A stretch of 64,000 nt of DNA from Dictyostelium discoideum (lineage: Eukaryota), in assembly GCA_000004695.1 (NCBI GenBank), contig CM000150.2, positions 3,776,001 to 3,840,000 of the forward strand, written 5' to 3'. A program made the translations under genes and the position numbers. Shown here in pieces: positions 5,297 through 55,692 of the stretch. The stretch's first letter is position 1. Every line of letters begins with the position of its first letter. The notes beneath the pieces were generated by a model. It saw nothing but the letters and a program-made list of their open reading frames with translations. It had not been told where the DNA came from and searched no databases.

Positions 5297-7053
5297 ATGG
5301 AAAAGAGTATAGAATCAATTTCTTCCTCTACTTTAAATATTTTAGATAATAAAAATTATAAAAAATGGGATAATGAAACAGTATGCAAATGGCTTTTAAA
5401 TAATATAAAAACAATACAAAAAGTTTCAATTGAAATCTTTCAAGCAAATGAAATCATTGGAAAAGATTTAGAATTTTTAACAGATAAAATATTATTAAAA
5501 ATGGGTGTTGGAATTCGTGATATCTTAAATTTTAAATTTGAATATCAAATTTTAAAAAATTGTTATAATAATAATAATAATAATAACCATATTACTATTA
5601 ATAATTTTAATTATAATTTTAATAATTTCAAAATAAATATAAATAAAGATTTATTAAAAGTTGTTGTAAATGCTCCAATTATTAATATTAATGAATATCA
5701 ATATATTGAAACCATTTCAAAAAATAAATTTTGTGAAATTGAAAAATATAAAAAAAGTCAAACTAAAGTGAATGAATATATAATTATTAAAAAAATTATT
5801 AAAAATTCAACATTGAATGAAGAAAAAGTAAGTCTTTTTAATTTTATTTTTATTTTAATTTATTTTTATATAAATTATTTTTAAAAATAATATTAATTTT
5901 CAAAAAATTATTAATTAATTAGTTAATTAATGAAATTGATACAATTTATTTACTTGATCATCCAAATTTAATTAAAATAATTGGATATTGTAAAGATAAA
6001 AATTATTTTTATATTGGAATGAAATATTATGAAACATTTAAATTTAAACAATCAAATATATCAAAATTTGGTAAAAATTTTGAACAAGTTATTAGAAAGA
6101 TTTCATTTAAAATTTTAAGTGCAATCGATTATTTACATTCATTAGAACCACCAATTATTCATGGAAATATTAATGCAAAGAATATATTATTAGATAATGA
6201 AAATAATGAACCAATTTTAATAGATTTTGGGCTATCATATAAATCAATTGATTTGTTAACAAATCAAAAAACTCAATTCATAAGTCCATGTTTTATTACA
6301 CCAGAATATTTTTATAAAAAAACAAAAAATAAAATTAGTAAAGAAGCTGATATTTTTAGTTTTGGTTCAACAATTTCAAATATGATAAAAGGTGGAACCG
6401 ATTTCAAAGAGGATGAAGAAGGATTTGAAGAATTGAAAAGAACGTTTGCAGGTGTTCTCACTAGTCGTGATAAAGTATCCTTTGATTATAGATCATTATT
6501 CACTGAAATCAATAAAGATGAACCATGTTTTAGACCAAGTTCAAAAGAACTTTTAAAATCATTTTGGTTTGTTGAACCACCTCAACCATCTTTTAAAACT
6601 TCGGAAATTACAACAAATCTTTTAATTTATTATTTAAAAAAATATGGTTGTTATATAATTCGAGATGGTGTAGCTATGGTTTCCCTTAATTTCAATGAAA
6701 ACATTTATTCTACCTCAAGTATTATAGGTTCTGAATTTTCACATCAACCAAAAATAAATGAAAAACATAAATATTTTAAAGAAATTAATCAATTTTATTC
6801 AAAAATCTTATCAGAATCATTTCAAGCAAAAATTGGATGGTATTTATTAAATTTAAACAATGAATTTAAAGATAAACCATATTTTAAAAATATATTTTTA
6901 TCTTTTTCAACTTCTGATAAACTTGAAATCAATTCTGTCGCTGATCTTAATTTAAAATTAACAATTTTTTTTTATAACTCTATTACTATGAGTTTAATTT
7001 ATCAAACAATTTATCAAAAACCTAAAAGTTTTAAAATTGTTGATTATTTATAA
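5297..7053 (+). CDS. SAM-kinase family paralog 3: SAM domain + predicted pseudokinase (HRD->HGN) + conserved C-terminal domain; exons 5297..5827, 5923..7053
   Basis: ORF 5297..5884 has a SAM motif (YKKWDNETVCKWL...IIGKDLEFLTDKILLKMGVGIRDIL) and the N-lobe (YIIIKKIIKNSTLNEEK|gtaagt at 5828). The acceptor ttaattag| is at 5922. LINEIDTIYLLDHPNLIKIIGYCKDK... continues in frame 1 into ORF 6019..7053. The catalytic loop reads IIHGNINAKN instead of HRDxKxxN, while DFG is retained. Confidence 0.7.
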
Positions 7054-9576: not shown

Positions 9577-10992
9577 ATGTTTTTAAATAAATTAATTAAA
9601 AATAAATATAAACAAAATTTCTTTAGTTTTAAAAACTATTGTACAATTAATAATAATAAACCATTAAATGGATTTAAAATTTTAGATTTATCAAGAGTAT
9701 TAGCAGGACCATACGCAACACAAATATTTGGAGATTTAGGAGCACAAGTTATAAAGGTTGAAAATGTTGGTAAAGGTGATGATACAAGACAATATGGACC
9801 ACCATTTTATGTTGATGAACAAGGTAGAAAAGGTAGTGCCTATTTTAGTTGTGCAAATAGAAATAAGAAATCGATTGCATTGGATATTTCAACAAAGGAA
9901 GGTCAAGATATAGTTTATTCATTAGCAAAGGAATCAGATGTTTTCATTGAGAATTTTAAAGTTGGTGGATTAAAAAAGTATTCATTAGATTATGAAACCA
10001 TTAAACAAATTAATCCATCGATTATCTATTGTTCAATCACTGGATTTGGACAAGATGGTGAGTATAGTAAATTACCAGGTTATGATTTTAGTGTTCAAGC
10101 AATGGGTGGTTTAATTTCAATTACAGGTGATAAAGAGAATCCATATAAATGTGGTGTGGCAATTGTTGATATGATGACAGGACTCTATGCAAATATTGCC
10201 ATTCAAGCTGCACTTCATCATAGAGAGAAATCCAAAGATAAAAAAGGTCAATATATAGATGTTAGTCTATTGGATGTTCAAGCTTCTTTCTTGGCAAATC
10301 ATGGTTCAAGTTATTTAGTAACTGGTGAAACCTCTGAACGTGTTGGTAATTCTCATCCAAGTATTTCACCTTATGATTCTTTAAAAACTAAAGATGGTTT
10401 CATGGTAGTTGCAATTGGTAATAATACTCAATTTCAATCAATGTGTAATGTTTTAGGTTTACCTCATTTATCAACTAATCCTTTATTCTCTACAAATCCA
10501 TCAAGAGTTTTAAATCGTAAACAATTACTTTCAATTCTAACAAATGAAACTTTAAAATTTAATACTGATGATATTGTTAAATTATTAGGTGATTCAAATG
10601 TACCTTGTTCACCAATTAATTCAATTGATAAAGTTGTAAATCATAAACAAATTAAACATAGAAATATGATTTGGAATTTACCTTTAAATGAAAATAATAA
10701 TAATAATTTAAATAATAATAATTTAAATAATAATAATAGTAATAATAATTTAAATAATAATAATAATAATAATAAAAATATTCAAAATGATAAAGGTGAA
10801 TATATAATGAATTCAATTAATTTAATTGGTAATCCAATTCATTTTAGTGAAACAAATATTCATACACCTTCAAGTATAAAAAGTAATATTCCACCACCTT
10901 TTTTAGGTCAACATACTGATGAAATTTTAAAAAATATTGGTTTAAATGAAAATCAAATTTTAAATTTAAAAAATAATAATATTGTTCAATAA
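9577..10992 (+). CDS. CoA-transferase family III (CaiB/BaiF-type; SUGCT/AMACR-like) protein with N-terminal presequence and internal poly-N insert
   Basis: A single 471-aa ORF. Family-III CoA-transferase motifs are present: [55 protein letters not shown]. Confidence 0.8.
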
Positions 10993-47853: not shown

Positions 47854-50081
47854 ATGAATAAAATTTTAATTTTATTTTTATCAGTAATTCTTTTATCACT
47901 ATTTTCAATATTTTTATTAAATTCAATAAATAATCATGATATTGAAATTAAAAATCCAGAAAATAATAAAAATTATAATAATATTAAAAAACAAAAAAAA
48001 ACAGTTAATAATAGACCAGAAAAAATAAAGTTATCAGGTGGTATAACATCAACATTATCAGATATACAATCAAATATTATTAATCAATTAAATAAAAAAA
48101 ATGAATTAAAAATAAAAAATGAAAATAAAAAAAAAAATAATAAAAATAATAAAAATAAAAAAAATAAAAGTAATAAAAAATTAGAAACTTTAGATAATAA
48201 TAAAAATAATAATGAAAATAATAATAAAAATAATATTAATAAAAATAATAAAAAAGTTAAAAATAATTTAATTAATTTTAAAAAAGATGAAATATCAATA
48301 TTTGGATTTAAATGTGAAAATGGTGGTATTGGATTTCATGATGGTTGTATTTGTCCATACGGTTTCAAAGATGAATTTTGTGAAACACCTTCAAAAAATA
48401 TTTCAACTTGTTTTGACCCAAGTTTTAAAATTGAATACTTGTATAAATTAGATCAAGTTGATCCACAAACATGTAAATCAAAAATTGGTTCATTATGTTG
48501 TTGGTCAAAATTTAGAAGTGATAATAAAATTTCAAATTCAATTTTAAATTATAAACAATTATTATTAAAAACAAATAATATTCAAAATTATGAATTAAAT
48601 AACTCTTCAAAATTCAGTATTAATAATAATGATAATCATGATTTAATTATTAAATCAATTTTACAATCATATGGTCCATGGGATGAAAATGATAAATTAT
48701 TTTTAAAATATATTATTATGAATAATATTCAAAAGACAAATTATATTTTAAAATATTCTAATCCAGTTTCACAAAATTTTAATTATAAATTAAATATTAA
48801 TAATAATAATTATAATAATATTAATAATAATAAAAATAAACCTTCAAATAATCATCAAACTCAATTACCAGCATTATCTTTAATACCATCTAAATCAAGA
48901 GCAAAATTAGCATTCGTTTTATTAATTCATGATATTGATATGCCAGCTATAAAATTATTATTCAATCACATTTATAAAGTTAAACATTATTATGTTATTC
49001 ATGGTTTGTATTTTAAAAAGTTTAAATAATTTTTATTATTATTTTTTTACTAATTTTATTTTTATAATTATTATTATTATTATTATTTAGTTGATGCTAA
49101 TTTTAAAGATAGAGTAAAAATAAATCAATTAAAAGAATATGTTAAAAATTTAAAGAATCAAAATTATAAAAAGGATATATTCATTCCAAAGAAATATCCA
49201 AATAATATTGAAATATTACAAGAAAGATTTCAAAATAGTTGGGGTTCAATTTCATTGGTTTATTCTGAATTGGCATGTTATACAAAATTAGTTGATATGG
49301 TATTAGATAGGTCAATGGTAACTGGTGTTGATGAAAAATGGTCACATGTTATTAACCTTTCAATTAATGATTTCCCAATTAAACCAATCTATAAATTAGA
49401 ACAATTCTTTTCTCAAAAATCAAATATACAAAAGAATTTTATAAATGAAGATAATATTTTAAAAGAATCTGAAAGATATAATGTAATTATAATTATGATA
49501 TTAATATTAATAATAATAATATTTAAATTACTCATTCATAATTATATTAATTTTATTTTTATATTATTTTAATTTTTTTATTATTTTAGAAATCATGGGT
49601 TGAATGTGGTAAGAGACAAATGGTATCTATTAATTTTGGTAGTGTTGGATTAGAGGATGCTGATGCTGATGGTGATAATTATCATTTATGTGGTTTAGAT
49701 AATGGTGGTGTTGAAAAAACAATTAATAGAAAAAATTATAAAGAAGGTTCACAATGGCATTTTATTACATTTAAATTTGCACATTATTTAATTTCTGATT
49801 TCAGATCAATTTCAAGATTATTCTCAATGAAATTCTCTTTTATTCCAGATGAATCTTTTTTCCAAATTGCAAAGTCTGAATCAAAAGATTTATTAATTGA
49901 TCAAGATTGGGATATTGATAATTATAGATTCATTCCATGGTATAATAGTGATAAAGCTTTAATTGTTGGAATGGACGAAATAAAGAGTAATTTCAATAAT
50001 AATTCAAGATATTTCTTCACACGTAAAGTTTATACATCAGATATTAAAAATGAAATAATTGAAAAATATTTAAAAGATTAA
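47854..50081 (+). CDS. glycosyltransferase family 14 (core-2/I-branching beta-1,6-GlcNAc-transferase-like), type II membrane protein; exons 47854..49003, 49091..49482, 49590..50081
   Basis: An N-terminal signal anchor and an N/K-rich stem are followed by GT14 motifs AFVLLIHDIDMPAIKLLFNHIYKVKHYYVIH + G|gtttgt. The acceptor ttatttag|TT GAT GCT reconstitutes VIHVDANF.... WGSISLVYSELACYTKLVD...ESERYN|gtaatt is followed by ttttag|AAA TCA TGG GTT GAA TGT GGT, in frame with ORF 49620..50081. Confidence 0.75.
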
Positions 50082-50452
50082 AATTAAAATTAAAATTAAA
50101 ATAAAATAAATAAATTAAAAAAATAAAAATTATCTTATTTCCAATTCCACCAAAAAAAAAAAAAAAAACCCATGAACAGTGGATTTTGTATAAATCCACT
50201 TTTTTTGGGTTTTAATTTTTAAAATTTTTCAATTTTTTTTTTTTTCTAAAAATAATCAAAGAATCTTATTATTAATTTTAATTTTAAAAAGAATTTTATA
50301 AATAAATTTCATGAAATAATAAAATAATAAAATATTGAAGTGTTATAATTTTTTAATTGAAAAATAAAAATAAAAAAATAAAATAAAAAAAAAATGTAAT
50401 ATAAATTTATATTTAAAAAGAAAATAATTAAAAAATAATAATAATAATAATA

Positions 50453-51580
50453 ATGGAGGATAATATAACTTCAATTGTAATTGATTGTGGATCTGGTATG
50501 TGTAAAGCTGGAATTGGTGGTGAAGAATTTCCAAGAGTTTCATTTCCATCAATTGTAGGAAAGCCAAGATTTGAAAAAACAATGTGTGCTATTGGTAATA
50601 AAGAATATTATGTTGGTGATGAAGCTCAATCTCAAAGAGGAATGTTATCATTAAAATATCCAATTAAGAATGGAATAGTTGTTAATTGGGAATATATGGA
50701 AAAATTGTTATTTCATATGTTTTATAATGAATTACGTGTTTCTCCAGATCAGTATCCAATTCTTTTCACTGAATCACCATTAAATCCTAAATCAAATAGG
50801 GAAATGTTAACACAAATAATGTTTGAAAAATTTAATGTACCAGCTTTATATATAGCAATTCAAGCTGTCCTTTCATTATATGCGTCTGGTCGTACATGTG
50901 GTATTGTTTTGGATTCAGGTGATGACGTTACACATACAGTGCCAATTTATGGTGGTTATGTTTTACAACATTCAATAATTCGTTTAAATTTTGCTGGAAG
51001 TGATTTAACAGAATATATGGCAAAATTATTATTAGAACGTGGGTATTCATTTACAACAACTTCTGAAATGGAAATTGTTAAATCAATTAAAGAGAAATTA
51101 GCATATGTTGCTATTAACTTTAATGCTGAAATGTCAAAACCAATCGATACATTAGAAACAACTTATCAACTACCAGATGGTCAAATAATAATAATTGGAA
51201 ATGAAAGATTTCGTTGTGCTGAAGCGTTATTTCAGCCATCAATGATTGGCTTAGAATGTGATGGTATTCATGAAACAATTTTCAAATCAATAATGATGTG
51301 TGATATTGATATTCGTAAACATATGTATGCAAATATTTTATTATCAGGTGGTAATACAATGCTCTCAGGAATTTCCGACCGTATCTATAACCAACTAAGA
51401 GAATTGGCACCAAATAATATGAAAATTTTAATTGTTGCTTCCCCAGAAAGAAAAAATCTTGTATGGATAGGTGGATCAATTTTAACTACTCTTCCCCTAT
51501 TCCAAGAAATGTGGATCTCAAAAGAAGAATATGATGAACATGGCCCATCAATTATTAATAAAAAAGTTGGATTATATTAA
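50453..51580 (+). CDS. divergent actin (actin family, 375 aa)
   Basis: A full-length actin-like ORF ([32 protein letters not shown]...[19 protein letters not shown]...[55 protein letters not shown]...). It is roughly 60-65% identical to conventional actin by eye. Confidence 0.8.
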
Positions 51581-51660
51581 ATAAATTGTTTTTAGGGAAT
51601 TAAAATATGTATTTATTTTATTTATAGTTTTAATAAATAATAATAGACAAATAAAAAAAA

Positions 51661-51938
51661 TTAAATATTGACATAAAGATCTAAAAGTGAGCCAAGATTC
51701 AAAGATAAACCCAATAATTGAGATCTATCGTCACTTTGGGAAGTACCTTGATTAGCACTAACTTTAAAGTTTGACATTGACTTATTTGTTTGGGTTGATT
51801 TAACACTTCCCATTGATGCAATTGATTCTATTATTAAAAAAAAATTATAATTAGTAAATTATTAACTTGTTTATTTAAAAAAAAAAAAATTATTTAAAAA
51901 AACATTTTTTTAACAATTTAATAATTACTGTATAACAT
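51661..51938 (-). CDS. small S/T/L-rich peptide gene, hssA/2C/7E-like (58 aa); exons 51929..51938 (ATGTTATACA) and 51661..51827
   Basis: On the minus strand, ATG TTA TAC A|gtaatt is followed by a ~90-nt AT-rich intron and ttttttttaatag|AA TCA ATT GCA TCA ATG GGA.... The product is MLYKSIASMGSVKSTQTNKSMSNFKVSANQGTSQSDDRSQLLGLSLNLGSLLDLYVNI*. It is not in the ORF track because the first exon is 10 nt. A paralog lies 1 kb away. Confidence 0.55.
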
Positions 51939-52712
51939 TTTATTTTTATTTTTTTAAAAAAATTGTAATTAAAACTTTTTTGTTTTATTTGTTTTATATG
52001 TTTTATTTGTTTTGGAATGAAAAATAAAATTATTAAATTTGAAATTTATAGTTTTTTTTTTTAAGGTTTTTTTTTTTACTTATATTAAACTATATTAATT
52101 ATATTATATTTTTAATAATTTTCTTATTTTATTTTTTAAGATCTCATTTTTTTGAAAAAAAAATACAAAACAAGATTGTGTTTGAAAAAAAAAAAAAGGT
52201 ACATCTTCCAATTTATTCTTAGTAAAAAATAGGAATAAAAATTTTAAGAAAAGTAAATCCCATTTTGTATTTTGTATTTGAGATCATTGTTTTTTATCAA
52301 TTAAAAATTGAATTCGTATATTTTTTATTTTGGAAATAATAATATTTTGATTAAAAAATACCAAATGGTTTTATATTGGTTAAAATTTTTAATTACGTAA
52401 ATGGTGGGGGGATCTAAAAAAAATAAAAGATATATAATTTCAATACCCCCTAAAAAAAACAGCAAAATAATTTAAATAAAAATTATGATTGCACCAGGTG
52501 TGTGTGTTTTAAATTTTAAATTTTAAATCCAACAATTAAAGAGGATATTTTTTTTTTAGAACTCCTGAACACCCAGCATTAATACTTATATCATGTATAA
52601 AAACTCATTATAAAAAAGAATATTACATTTTAATATTAAAAATTTAAAATCTATTAATTGTTTATTTAAATTTTAAAATAAATTTATTTTAATTATTATT
52701 ATAACTAAATTT

Positions 52713-52950
52713 TTAAATATATATATCCAATCCTAACAATGAACCAAGGTTGAGAGAAAGGCCAAGCAATTGGACATTATTTAAACTTTGTTTACTTGAG
52801 GCATCACTAATATTGGTAAAATTAACAGATGCGGTTTTGGTTTGGGATTTACCAATAGAAGAAATTGATTCTAAATTAAAAATTTGGTATTAGTATCTTT
52901 TTTTTTTTTTTGTATTTCTCAAAAAAAAATTAATATTTACTGTATAACAT
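52713..52950 (-). CDS. small S/T/L-rich peptide gene, hssA/2C/7E-like (55 aa); exons 52941..52950 (ATGTTATACA) and 52713..52870
   Basis: Same structure as the 51661..51938 gene: ATG TTA TAC A|gtaaat, then tttag|AA TCA ATT TCT TCT ATT GGT.... The product is MLYKSISSIGKSQTKTASVNFTNISDASSKQSLNNVQLLGLSLNLGSLLGLDIYI*. The first exon, donor, acceptor phase and upstream 'ttactgtataacatttta' block are all conserved. Confidence 0.55.
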
Positions 52951-53650
52951 TTTAGCTTTTTTGAGTTTATAATTTTTTGTTTTTAATGTTTAAAAAAAAA
53001 TTTTAATTAAACAAATTTATACTTTTTTTTTTTTTTTTTTTATCCATAAAAAATAATTTTAAAAGTCCAAAAAAAAAAAAAAAAACAAATTAAATAATTA
53101 ATAGGAATTAATAATAATAATTTGGTGTTTCTAAATAAACAAATACCAAAAATCTATTACATTTTCGTTTTAATTAATTTAATAAAAAGGAAACAAAATA
53201 ATTTAAAATTGTTTTGTCCAAGAAAATTTTAATTTTATTTTAATTTTTGAAAGATTAATGTAGATAATAATTTCGAAAATAGGATTATTTCTTGGTATAG
53301 ACATACGAGTTGGATGTATTTTCTTGGACAAAACAAAAATCCTTTATAAATTATTACAAATCTTTTTTTTATCTTGCCAATAGTGCCAATGGATTCCAAT
53401 ATAAAGAAAAGTTTTTTTAAGTAATAAATTATAATTATATTATAATAGTTTATTTGTTAATTGAAGAATTTATATTTTTAATGAAGCCAATTTTGGTTGG
53501 TTTGAATTAAATAATTCAATCCATTTTAAAAACAATTAAAACATTTAATAAAGACTTTTTTTTTTTTTTTTTTTTTTAGTTTATAAATACGTTTACTTTT
53601 TTTTTTTAGTTTTTTTTATTATTATTTATTTTTTTATTTATTTATTTATT

Positions 53651-54649
53651 TTAGTAATTATTGAAATAACCCATTGAAACAACAAAAGTACTTTCAGCAG
53701 TTTGAGAGATAATTTTAGCATTTTGGATATCGAGTGAAACGAAATTTAAGACAGCGTTAAAGTTGACAGCTGCGTAGAGAGTAGTTTGATGAGCAGCATG
53801 TGAAACAACATTAACTTGTTGAGCTGCAGTGAAAATACCTAATGGTTTGACAGCACCAGTTTCTGGATCGATTAAAGCATAATCTTGACCAGAGTTACCG
53901 TTTGAATCGGTGATGATTACAGTACCAACTAAAACATCCAATGATGGTACATAAAGTAAATCGTATGGACCAGAGGTGACACCAGTTGGTAATACTAAAT
54001 TGACGGAACCAAGGTTTTCACCTGAACGAGTATCAAAAGTGGTGACAGTGACATCGTTGACAGTTGCAGTGACAACATAATAAGTATGATTCCAAGTTGA
54101 AAGACCAACACCTAAAAATGCACCTTCAACTGATCCATAAACATCATATGAACCTGAAGCTGGATCAATTTCACCAACTAACCATGTATTGTTACCTTCT
54201 GAAATTACACATTTTAATGAATTAACATCACTATCATATCTTAAACCATAAACTAATTCAGTTGTTGGTAATGGTACGAAATAATTAACTTTATTTTTTG
54301 CAACATTAATTGTAACTAAATAATTAATCTATAAAAAAAAAAAAAAAAAAAAAATTTTAAGTTAATATATATATATTTTTTAAAATAATAATAATAAATG
54401 AATAAATAAGTTTTAAAAACTTACACCATTATTTGAAAGTTGGAAAGTAAAGATTGAAGTTAAATCATTCATTGCGCTATTACCTGGAAGTGAATTTGTG
54501 AAATTTGGGAATAATAATGAGTAAGTGGCTTGACCAGCAGTGGTTGAGATTTGACCAAAGTTGGCTGTGTTACCAGTTTGCCAAACACCATATAAATTTG
54601 CACTTGCATATGAAATTAATGAGAGAATAACTAAAAATAATAACTTCAT
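53651..54649 (-). CDS. secreted protein of unknown function with YVTN-type beta-propeller-like repeats (300 aa); exons 54425..54649 and 53651..54328
   Basis: Exon 1 (ORF 54413..54649-) encodes the signal peptide MKLLFLVILSLISYASA...QLSNNG|gtaagt. The acceptor ttttatag|ATT AAT TAT TTA GTT ACA continues in phase to ORF 53651..53941(-). Repeated motifs resemble DYALIDPETGAVKPLG / YDLLYVPSLDVLVGTVIITD. Codon usage is strongly C/T-biased (GGT, GTC, ACT, TTC), suggesting high expression. Confidence 0.6.
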
Positions 54650-55692
54650 TTCTTTTTCTTTCTTTTTTATAATATCTACAATATATATAAATAAATAAAT
54701 GAATGAAAAAAAAAAAAAAAAAAATAAAAAAAAAACGGCCTCGGGTTTTGTTTATTTTTTTTTTTTTTTTTTTTTTTTTAAAATTAAAAAAAAAAGAAAA
54801 AAAATAAAAAAAATAAAATATTTTAAAAAATATCTAAAAAAAAAATCGTAAAAATCATCCAAATTTATACTGAATTGTTATTTTTATTTTATTTTTTTAT
54901 TTTTATTTTTATTTTATTTTTTTATTTTTATTTTTTAATAATTGATCAATTAATTCCCAATATTTAAAATTCTTAAGAATCATTTGAAACCAATTAATTA
55001 TTCCTTATTTCTTTTTAATTTTTTTTTTTTTTCATTTTTTTATTTTTTTTTTTTTTTTTTTTCTTTCATTTTTTGTTTTTCTCACTTTTTTTTTTTTTTC
55101 TTTCATTTTTTTTTTTTTTTTTTTTCAATGTAAACTCAAAAGCAACAGTTGTAAATCAATATGGTACATGTTTATAAAGGATTATTTTTAGAATGGTAAG
55201 TTACAAATGAATAATTAAATTAGTGGTAAAAATTTAGCAAATCATAAATTCTAAATATTAATATTACTTTAATTTATTATAAAGTGACCCACCAACTAAA
55301 CAATTTGTAGAGTATATAAGTAAACAAGAACATTTCGAAGTAATTGTTTTGGATGAAACACATTTATTCCTTCAAGGTGGTGATGAAAAAGTTATAAATT
55401 CAATACAAAGAAGAATTGATGATTTACAAAATCAAAATACATATTCAGTATTTGATAAAGATCAATAATTATAGAGAGAAAAAAAAAAAAAAAAAAAAAA
55501 AAAACATATAATATATAATTGTAAATAATAAATAAAATGAAACTATTTTTTTTAATGTAAATAATTTTTATTATTATTATTATTTTATATCTTTATTTCT
55601 ATTTATTTTTTATTTTTTTATTTTTTATTTTTTTATTTTTTTTTTTTTATTTTTATTTTTTTTTTTTTATTTATTTATTTTAAAATTAATTT

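Follow-up and report, generated by a model that had tools for sequence, protein, structure and literature searches.

When a coding gene begins with an exon of only ten nucleotides (nt), it is not obvious that it is a gene at all, and this is the question raised by two tiny minus-strand loci in a 64,000-nt stretch of Dictyostelium discoideum AX4 chromosome 1 (contig CM000150.2, positions 3,776,001 to 3,840,000; hereafter the window, with a G+C content (GC) of ~20%). An original prediction, made from the letters alone, had described them as unannotatable, paralogous micro-genes that resemble the hssA/2C/7E (sigN) family of small peptides. For the downstream locus, gene B, the term "unannotatable" turned out to be wrong, as its spliced product is 100% identical (58/58 residues) to DDB_G0269904 (EAL72302.1, XP_646390.1, UniProt Q55CU1). 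Gene B is staG, which has already been annotated, named and studied experimentally as a stalk-cell marker. The upstream locus, gene A, is apparently a previously unannotated paralogue of staG, absent from the public protein collections searched. We hold it very likely that both loci are real spliced protein-coding micro-genes, namely staG and a conserved unannotated sister. What is new here is modest and consists of this conserved paralogue inside a published reporter, of orthologues beyond D. discoideum and of a plausible hssA/2C/7E link, while staG itself was known; the tandem pair is not a new kind of biological system.

The two genes were reassembled from the window sequence (51400..53300 was read), and their exons and introns are listed in Table 1. 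Exon 2 opens with AATCAATT in both genes, and the predicted spliced junctions read ...AAAATGTTATACA^AATCAATTTCTTCTATTGG for gene A and ...AAAATGTTATACA^AATCAATTGCATCAATGGG for staG (^ marks a splice site). A TACTAAT branch-point motif is found 25 nt from the 3' end of the gene A intron and 29 nt from that of the staG intron. The spliced product of gene A has 55 residues, MLYKSISSIGKSQTKTASVNFTNISDASSKQSLNNVQLLGLSLNLGSLLGLDIYI, and contains the segments QSLNNVQLLGLSLNLGSLLGLDIYI and TASVNFTNISDASSK; that of staG has 58 residues, MLYKSIASMGSVKSTQTNKSMSNFKVSANQGTSQSDDRSQLLGLSLNLGSLLDLYVNI, and contains SQLLGLSLNLGSLLDLYVNI and VSANQGTSQSDDR. Both peptides share 53% identity, with 13 consecutive identical residues in the tail. 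The 14-mer ATGTTATACAGTAA occurs exactly twice in the window, both times as an exon 1 site, with 0.06 occurrences expected from shuffled sequences, none of which reached two. A tblastn search of the window found these two copies only and no third, with a cross-match between A and B at E ~1e-8.

The reassembly thus bore out the real, paralogous two-exon genes of the original prediction, with their identical 10-nt first exon, gtaa(t/a)t donor and phase-1 acceptor, and the proposed splice coordinates (51928/51828 and 52940/52871) and the peptide sketch were exact. The introns, given there as ~90 nt, measure 70 nt in A and 101 nt in B. The "conserved upstream block" ttactgtataacatttta is nothing but taaa, ATGTTATACA and gtaa in reverse complement, that is, exon 1 with its donor, and the "conserved flanks" of the pair were an artefact of restating exon 1 and provide no independent flank. 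The statement that neither gene appears in the open reading frame (ORF) track holds at the default cut-off of 60 residues and fails at 40 residues, where staG exon 2 is listed as a 50-residue ATG-initiated ORF (51661..51813). Exon 2 of gene A lacks a Met codon in its frame and never enters the listing, even at the lower cut-off; therefore, translation of gene A requires splicing to exon 1. A plus-strand antisense ORF at 52750..52893 (47 residues, TTG start) was dismissed as mechanical.

The evidence that carries the coding status of both genes comes from a comparison with the corresponding loci of D. firmibasis and D. cf. discoideum, which contain copies of the gene A type (A-type) and the gene B type (B-type). 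All six intact copies from the three species keep ATGTTAT(A/T)CA^GTAA, TAG^AATCAATT and phase 1, with intron lengths of 66-101 nt and a (T/A)ACTAA(T/C) branch motif 20-32 nt from the 3' splice site. Exon 1 of gene A is identical in the A-type copy of D. cf. discoideum and reads ATGTTATTCA in that of D. firmibasis, and A-type exon 2 lacks a Met codon in all three species. The GC of exon 2 is 31%, compared with 7-13% in the introns and 12-15% in intergenic DNA, of which only 2.9% of 156-nt windows are open in a given frame. The ratio of nonsynonymous to synonymous substitution rates (dN/dS) among orthologues is 0.32-0.54, with one-sided Fisher p values from 0.0014 to 0.066; for the A-type orthologues it is 0.33-0.40, and p = 0.0014 was obtained for D. 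discoideum versus D. firmibasis. Over all pairs, 92 synonymous and 19 non-synonymous codon differences were counted. Within the 13-codon QLLGLSLNLGSLL segment of the tail, 12 of 39 nucleotides differ between A and B of D. discoideum without a single amino-acid change, and this synonymous bias appears to us the most telling evidence for coding. Judged from these substitution patterns, both genes are evidently protein-coding and both lineages are under protein-level purifying selection, because dN/dS is below 1 and the 12 tail differences are all silent.

The absence of gene A from the protein collections was seen in several searches. The exact peptide had no match among ~15 billion sequences, word-indexed searches that used B or a six-sequence profile including A yielded no A-like protein, and an exhaustive HMMER search of 1.84 billion cluster representatives, with the exon-2 translation as query for gene A, yielded no A-like protein of D. 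discoideum. Two relatives were obtained from the exhaustive search. One of them, KAK5575721.1 of D. firmibasis, has 56 residues, starts with MLFKSIASIG and is of the A-type, whereas the B-type copy of the same species was left uncalled. The other, KAM9999834.1 of D. cf. discoideum, has 149 residues with a staG-like C-terminus. In that genome the copies follow in the order B-type, A-type, B-type, so that the A-type copy is preceded upstream by an additional intact B-type copy, and the first two of the three are uncalled. The third copy, next to the actin gene (L003 ~5636-5906), has the exon 1 ATGTTATACT followed by the donor GTAAC, which after canonical splicing leads to a TAA at codon 4; it may be a pseudogene or reflect a sequencing error. 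The 149-residue KAM9999834.1 with its Asn/Gln-rich upstream exons is probably a mis-model of this disabled B-type copy. Thus, four of the seven copies in three annotated genomes are uncalled and one is mis-modelled, and in this sense the original prediction was right that genes of this type are hard to annotate. Gene finders appear systematically to miss genes with a 10-nt first exon.

The order of genes around the pair is shared by the three genomes and comprises a gene for a 300-residue protein, the micro-genes, an opposite-strand gene for a 375-residue actin, and a Branch-domain gene. With syntenic tandem copies of the same exon/intron structure in D. firmibasis and D. cf. discoideum, the conservation of the duplicated pair is confirmed. 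The pair is flanked by what appears to be a gene for a secreted protein and by act26, an actin gene in convergent orientation, and from its distribution it is older than the split from D. firmibasis.

For staG, a considerable body of published data is available. Its expression in RNA sequencing (RNA-seq) is ~185, 1545 and 1977 transcripts per million (TPM) in three stalk samples and ~0 in cup, spore and vegetative cells, and a lacZ fusion was expressed only late and in the upper stalk, whereupon the gene was named staG (Kin et al. 2018, PMC6198379). According to these data, staG is transcribed very highly only in mature stalk cells during late culmination (PMC6198379). It has been listed as stalk-only, with the entry "Conservation: Ddis", function unknown and no domains (Forbes et al. 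2022, PMC9117722), and as it is hardly induced by cyclic diguanylate (c-di-GMP) or differentiation-inducing factor 1 (DIF-1), it served as evidence for a further stalk-inducing signal (PMC9117722). Both the deposited model and the way in which the lacZ fusion was designed speak for the splicing of staG, and among GT..AG introns only +11..+111 yields the deposited protein XP_646390.1. Table S1 of Kin et al. 2018 (PMC6198379) prints the intron as +13_+104, whereas the sequence supports +11..+111.

The same reporter construct turned out to contain gene A. The published lacZ construct spans -1555..+160, and the nearest upstream gene was placed at -1519 (Kin et al. 2018 Table S1, PMC6198379). Relative to staG, the gene A ATG is located at -1012 and its stop at -775, and gene A lies wholly within the stretch that both papers designate as 5' intergenic to staG, because this interval falls inside the cloned one. 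In the window, the reverse primer maps to 51778..51804 within staG exon 2 and ends at a codon boundary, and the forward primer maps to ~53491, with one mismatch and one indel between the printed primer and the genome.

Table 1. Features of the staG locus and staG-like copies without a gene call (window coordinates, unless a contig is named)
Feature	Position	Strand	Remarks
Gene A exon 1	52950..52941	minus	10-nt coding micro-exon ATGTTATACA = M-L-Y + first base of codon 4
Gene A intron	52940..52871	minus	70 nt, GTAAAT donor, TTTAG acceptor, phase 1, 12.9% GC
Gene A exon 2	52870..52713	minus	158 nt including TAA
Putative gene A core promoter	53014..53040	minus	A-run then GTATAAATTT, ~71 nt upstream of ATG; consensus match only
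Gene B (staG, DDB_G0269904) exon 1	51938..51929	minus	10 nt, ATGTTATACA
staG intron	51928..51828	minus	101 nt, GTAATT donor, AATAG acceptor, phase 1, 6.9% GC
staG exon 2	51827..51661	minus	167 nt including TAA
A-B spacer = proximal staG promoter	51939..52712	minus	A(n)CTATAAATTT at -112
staG "promoter" lacZ fragment	51778..53491	minus	primer mapping; whole of gene A included
Uncalled staG-like copies	L002 5973-6222 (D. firmibasis); L003 2034-2294, 3491-3724 (D. cf. discoideum); window 52713-52950		

Whether the two genes belong to hssA/2C/7E is less easily answered. This family of ~100 small, developmentally regulated Dictyostelium proteins has been described from 96 genes, with products of less than 120 residues that are rich in Ser, Cys and Gly, with a first-exon ORF of 13 nt in 89/96 and of 10 nt in 3/96 genes and introns of 66-122 nt (Vicente et al. 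2008, PMC2257962). The 10-nt form is found in sigN132, in sigN183 (56 residues) and in sigN176 (62 residues) (full table of PMC2257962). staG is not among the 96, as no chromosome 1 entry of the list combines 10-nt and 167-nt exons with a 101-nt intron and a length of 58 residues (Additional file 1 of PMC2257962). Both groups share the two-exon plan with a 13-nt or 10-nt first exon and one short phase-1 intron before a SISSIG-type motif, a Ser-rich N-terminal half that ends in QS.N..Q, products below 120 residues, expression in prestalk, stalk or cup, and tandem clustering. In the one hssA-type gene structure that was examined directly, that of D. dimigraforme, the phase-1 intron stands directly before SISSIG (...G^GTAA...TAG^CC TCA ATT TCA TCA ATA GGT), and the staG-like junction reads ...A^GTAA...TAG^AA TCA ATT (G/T)C(A/T) TC(A/T) AT(G/T) GG. 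The differences concern the start, which is MTIL in hssA/2C/7E and MLYK in the staG-like peptides, the typical length of 87-99 versus 55-58 residues, and the C-terminal half, which is Cys/Gly-rich in hssA/2C/7E and replaced by an 18-residue Leu-rich tail in the staG-like peptides. The latter contain no Cys (one in the D. firmibasis B-type copy), 4-5 Gly and 9-11 Leu, compared with 4 Cys and 14 Gly in the hssA-type control.

For the profile comparisons, two hssA-type sequences were used. The A-type peptides of the three species matched PF05710 ("Coiled") as sole Pfam family, with 13.4, 12.8 and 11.0 bits over residues 5-38 and profile positions 6-37, whereas none of ten shuffled controls matched. 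The staG-family consensus scored 8.1 bits; the gathering threshold of the family is 21.4 bits, and the positive control from D. dimigraforme reached 83 bits after removal of an extra T in its micro-exon. A staG-family hidden Markov model (HMM) scored 11-13 bits against the two hssA-type proteins, a value reached by at most 5 of 5000 shuffles. Alignment of the two groups by hhalign gave 76.8% probability over 33 columns that include the QS.N..Q motif, and BLASTP aligned 39 residues with 38% identity (E = 0.001, single comparison). The originally proposed resemblance to hssA/2C/7E therefore stands for the gene architecture and the SI(S/A)S(I/M)G motif and does not extend to the PF05710 threshold, which is missed, or to the Cys/Gly-rich half, which is absent. 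We think that the staG-like family is probably a divergent, lineage-restricted offshoot of hssA/2C/7E, and not demonstrably a member, as far as sequence and gene structure allow this to be judged. In such an offshoot, the micro-exon with its intron and the N-terminal module would have been kept and the Cys/Gly-rich half swapped for the Leu-rich tail.

Concerning the D. dimigraforme gene (L004 ~10390-10730, plus strand), it was observed that its first exon reads ATGACAATTTTTAG before the GT, which is one T beyond the 13-nt family exon, and that it has been annotated with an implausible 5' extension (P0005, 105 residues). A second hssA-type exon on the same contig (~9697, minus strand) is divergently oriented and appears frameshifted. 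Homopolymer errors in such assemblies may corrupt many micro-exon genes.

The staG-like peptides contain 39-47% Ser, Thr, Asn and Gln and carry a net charge of +1 to +3. They are conserved in the N-terminal MLYKSI(A/S)S(I/M)G and in the C-terminal QLLGLSLNLGSLL.L.... segment. According to their hydropathy, none possesses a hydrophobic N-terminus, so that a classical signal peptide is not expected, and the designation "secreted" in the original prediction found no support. A transmembrane tail was rejected as well, since the maximal 19-residue hydropathy is ~1.0-1.3, compared with 1.9 in the hssA-type control. AlphaFold2 modelling from an alignment of three sequences suggests a disordered region at residues 1-32, with a predicted local distance difference test (pLDDT) score of ~50, and a helix at residues 33-57 (pLDDT ~78), at a predicted template modelling score of 0.24. 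The products would be cytosolic peptides of 55-58 residues without a signal peptide, built from an N-terminal motif, a disordered linker rich in Ser, Thr, Asn and Gln, and an invariant, Leu-rich amphipathic tail as the putative functional module. This tail would most likely serve self-association or the binding of a partner, a membrane or a wall component during the terminal, vacuolising differentiation of stalk cells, a role in keeping with a small, very abundant peptide of cells that undergo vacuolisation, wall formation and death.

A possible functional analogue is SRCP1, a small protein that is reportedly rich in Ser, specific to Dictyostelium and active through a short hydrophobic segment at its C-terminus. 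This segment is described as a pseudo-amyloid domain that is required for the anti-aggregation activity, and the authors of the SRCP1 work are said to group the protein with the sigN genes in one broad class of small proteins. The analogy is purely functional. In the staG-like tail, hydrophobic and polar residues alternate with a beta-strand periodicity, and staG, unlike SRCP1, is confined to terminal stalk cells.

Also the promoters were compared between copies and species. Every copy has its own A-run followed by (G/C)TATAAA(T/A), at -71, -75 and -91 in the A-type and at -112, -140 and -102 in the B-type copies; in the A-type copies of D. cf. discoideum (-75) and D. firmibasis (-91), the element takes the form A(n)GTATAAA. 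Because each has its own TATA-type element, A and B would each constitute a separate transcription unit. The staG promoter contains two blocks conserved in the three species, CACAATCTTGTT at -242 and ATTTTTCATTCCAAAA at -87. Convincing cis-elements shared between the A and B promoters were not found, and the co-regulated unit of the original prediction has no support from common promoter footprints. In the A-B spacer, which has ~15% GC, several G+C-rich islands are seen on the minus strand between 52380 and 52600, such as GCTGGGTGTTCAGGAGTTC, CACACACACCTGGTGCAATC and AGATCCCCCCACCATTTACGTAAT; they do not belong to the blocks that the three species have in common and match no Rfam family, and they could be species-specific regulatory sites.

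Taken further than the coding status, the boldest reading is that gene A is functional and expressed and belongs with staG to a small family, a recent hssA/2C/7E offshoot restricted to the D. discoideum complex, with a Leu-rich self-association tail. We give this composite view a probability of roughly 45%. A number of observations weigh against our overall account of the pair. The sole Logan contig over the locus (L001) is genomic, colinear with 53041..51509 and contains the introns, and thus it provides no splice evidence for gene A. At the thresholds used, the gene A promoter contains no block that is conserved in all three species. For staG, the lacZ fusion would also be translatable from Met9 in exon 2 without splicing, and protein-level detection is in question, as within the portion of a life-cycle proteome that was covered Q55CU1 appears only in a STRING network table, which can include nodes that were not part of the input. 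With respect to the tail, the helix modelled with moderate confidence conflicts with the hydrophobic moment of the last 18 residues, which is 1.9-2.0 at 180 degrees versus 0.5-0.9 at 100 degrees and thus indicates a beta-type amphipathicity. With respect to the hssA link, all PF05710 scores are below threshold, the B-type peptides have no Pfam match, and after removal of the SISSIG hexamer the similarity that is left lacks significance, as ~5% of shuffles attain it.

These last points are what one would expect if the staG-like genes were unrelated to hssA/2C/7E, with the micro-exon plan and the SISSIG-like hexamer being convergent or coincidental and a Ser-rich composition being common in Dictyostelium; the near absence of Cys, the few Gly, and the omission of staG from the 96-gene list together with its "domains: none" entry in Forbes et al. 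would fit as well. We nevertheless consider this rather doubtful, as both families have the phase-1 intron in the codon just before the hexamer, a 10-nt first exon is also known from a minority of hssA/2C/7E genes, and PF05710 was the only Pfam family matched; it was matched by A-type peptides from three species but not by any shuffle. The hhalign probability likewise speaks against coincidence. Gene A could instead be a decaying or silent staG duplicate, a pseudogene or a copy that was never expressed, so that staG would be the sole functional gene. That gene A is found in no annotation or protein set searched and that its promoter lacks a three-species block would agree with this, and the disabled B-type copy of D. 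cf. discoideum with its TAA at codon 4 demonstrates that copies in the cluster can decay. Such a fate is improbable for gene A itself, since its open frame, exon 1, donor, branch site and acceptor were kept in three species under the low dN/dS described above, the TATA-type element is conserved, and in D. firmibasis it is the A-type copy that is the annotated one. In addition, the A and B lineages are separated by a synonymous divergence (dS) of ~1 or more and yet share the identical 13-residue tail.

That the two loci act mainly as RNAs, with the peptides being incidental, is a thought prompted by hssA, for which RNA action was suggested and a frame-shifted construct still suppressed a culmination defect, and also by exon 1, the nucleotides of which are almost invariant, synonymous positions included. 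We regard it as very improbable in view of the protein-level constraint, visible in the silent tail differences, in the excess of synonymous over non-synonymous changes and in dN/dS values below 1 throughout; moreover, the region contains neither an Rfam family nor a notable structure signal. The AT-rich, low-complexity surroundings and the redundancy of the "conserved upstream block" with exon 1 could finally raise the suspicion of a dispersed non-coding repeat or of chance ORFs, the former being a scenario that the original prediction had itself named. It deserves practically no credence, as there are just two copies in 64 kb that are syntenic in three genomes, exon 2 combines a coding-type GC with an open frame and synonymous-biased substitutions, and gene B is an expressed, named gene; a non-coding repeat is ruled out by this comparative coding evidence.

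If the bold reading of a functional gene A with a self-associating tail holds, the staG family would represent a minimal two-module peptide that is present in large amounts in dying stalk cells and has a chaperone-like or a wall- or vacuole-associated role, and hssA-type genes would evolve by keeping the micro-exon and the N-terminal module while exchanging C-terminal modules. The reference annotation of a model organism apparently lacks a conserved coding gene, which is as such invisible in every RNA-seq count table and knockout design. For promoter dissection it matters that the staG reporter, the stalk-only marker behind the argument for a stalk-inducing signal besides DIF-1 and c-di-GMP, includes an entire second gene with its putative core promoter. 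staG is also not specific to D. discoideum, as the papers had it ("Ddis only"), since both paralogues occur in D. firmibasis and D. cf. discoideum, and comparative work is thus possible. With 5/7 copies missed or mis-modelled, a targeted micro-exon scan of dictyostelid genomes appears worthwhile, for which ATG plus 7-10 nt, GTAA, an intron of 60-120 nt, TAG and an exon of the S-I-S-S-I-G type could serve as the pattern.

Some further observations concern the neighbourhood of the pair. The 375-residue actin ORF (act26, DDB_G0269902) lies at 50453..51580 on the plus strand, convergent on staG, and the order gnt10 (DDB_G0269900), act26, staG is also found in the published RNA-seq table. In that table act26 is almost silent, compared with ~2000 TPM for staG in stalk (PMC6198379). 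The stop codons of act26 and staG are 80 base pairs (bp) apart, and therefore the 3' untranslated regions of the two genes must overlap or abut. Scans with Rfam and for tRNAs over 51000..54000 and 50000..55000 gave nothing above threshold; an Rfam mir-3533 match at 51248-51331 (plus strand), with 40 bits against a gathering score of 104, falls within the actin coding sequence and is almost certainly spurious. The upstream neighbour (window ~53457-54649, minus strand) is a multi-exon gene whose product starts with the signal-peptide-like MKLLFLVILSLISYASA...; it is outside the DDB_G02699xx identifier series between staG and gtf2h5, and its orthologues in L002 and L003 encode 300 residues without a Pfam domain.

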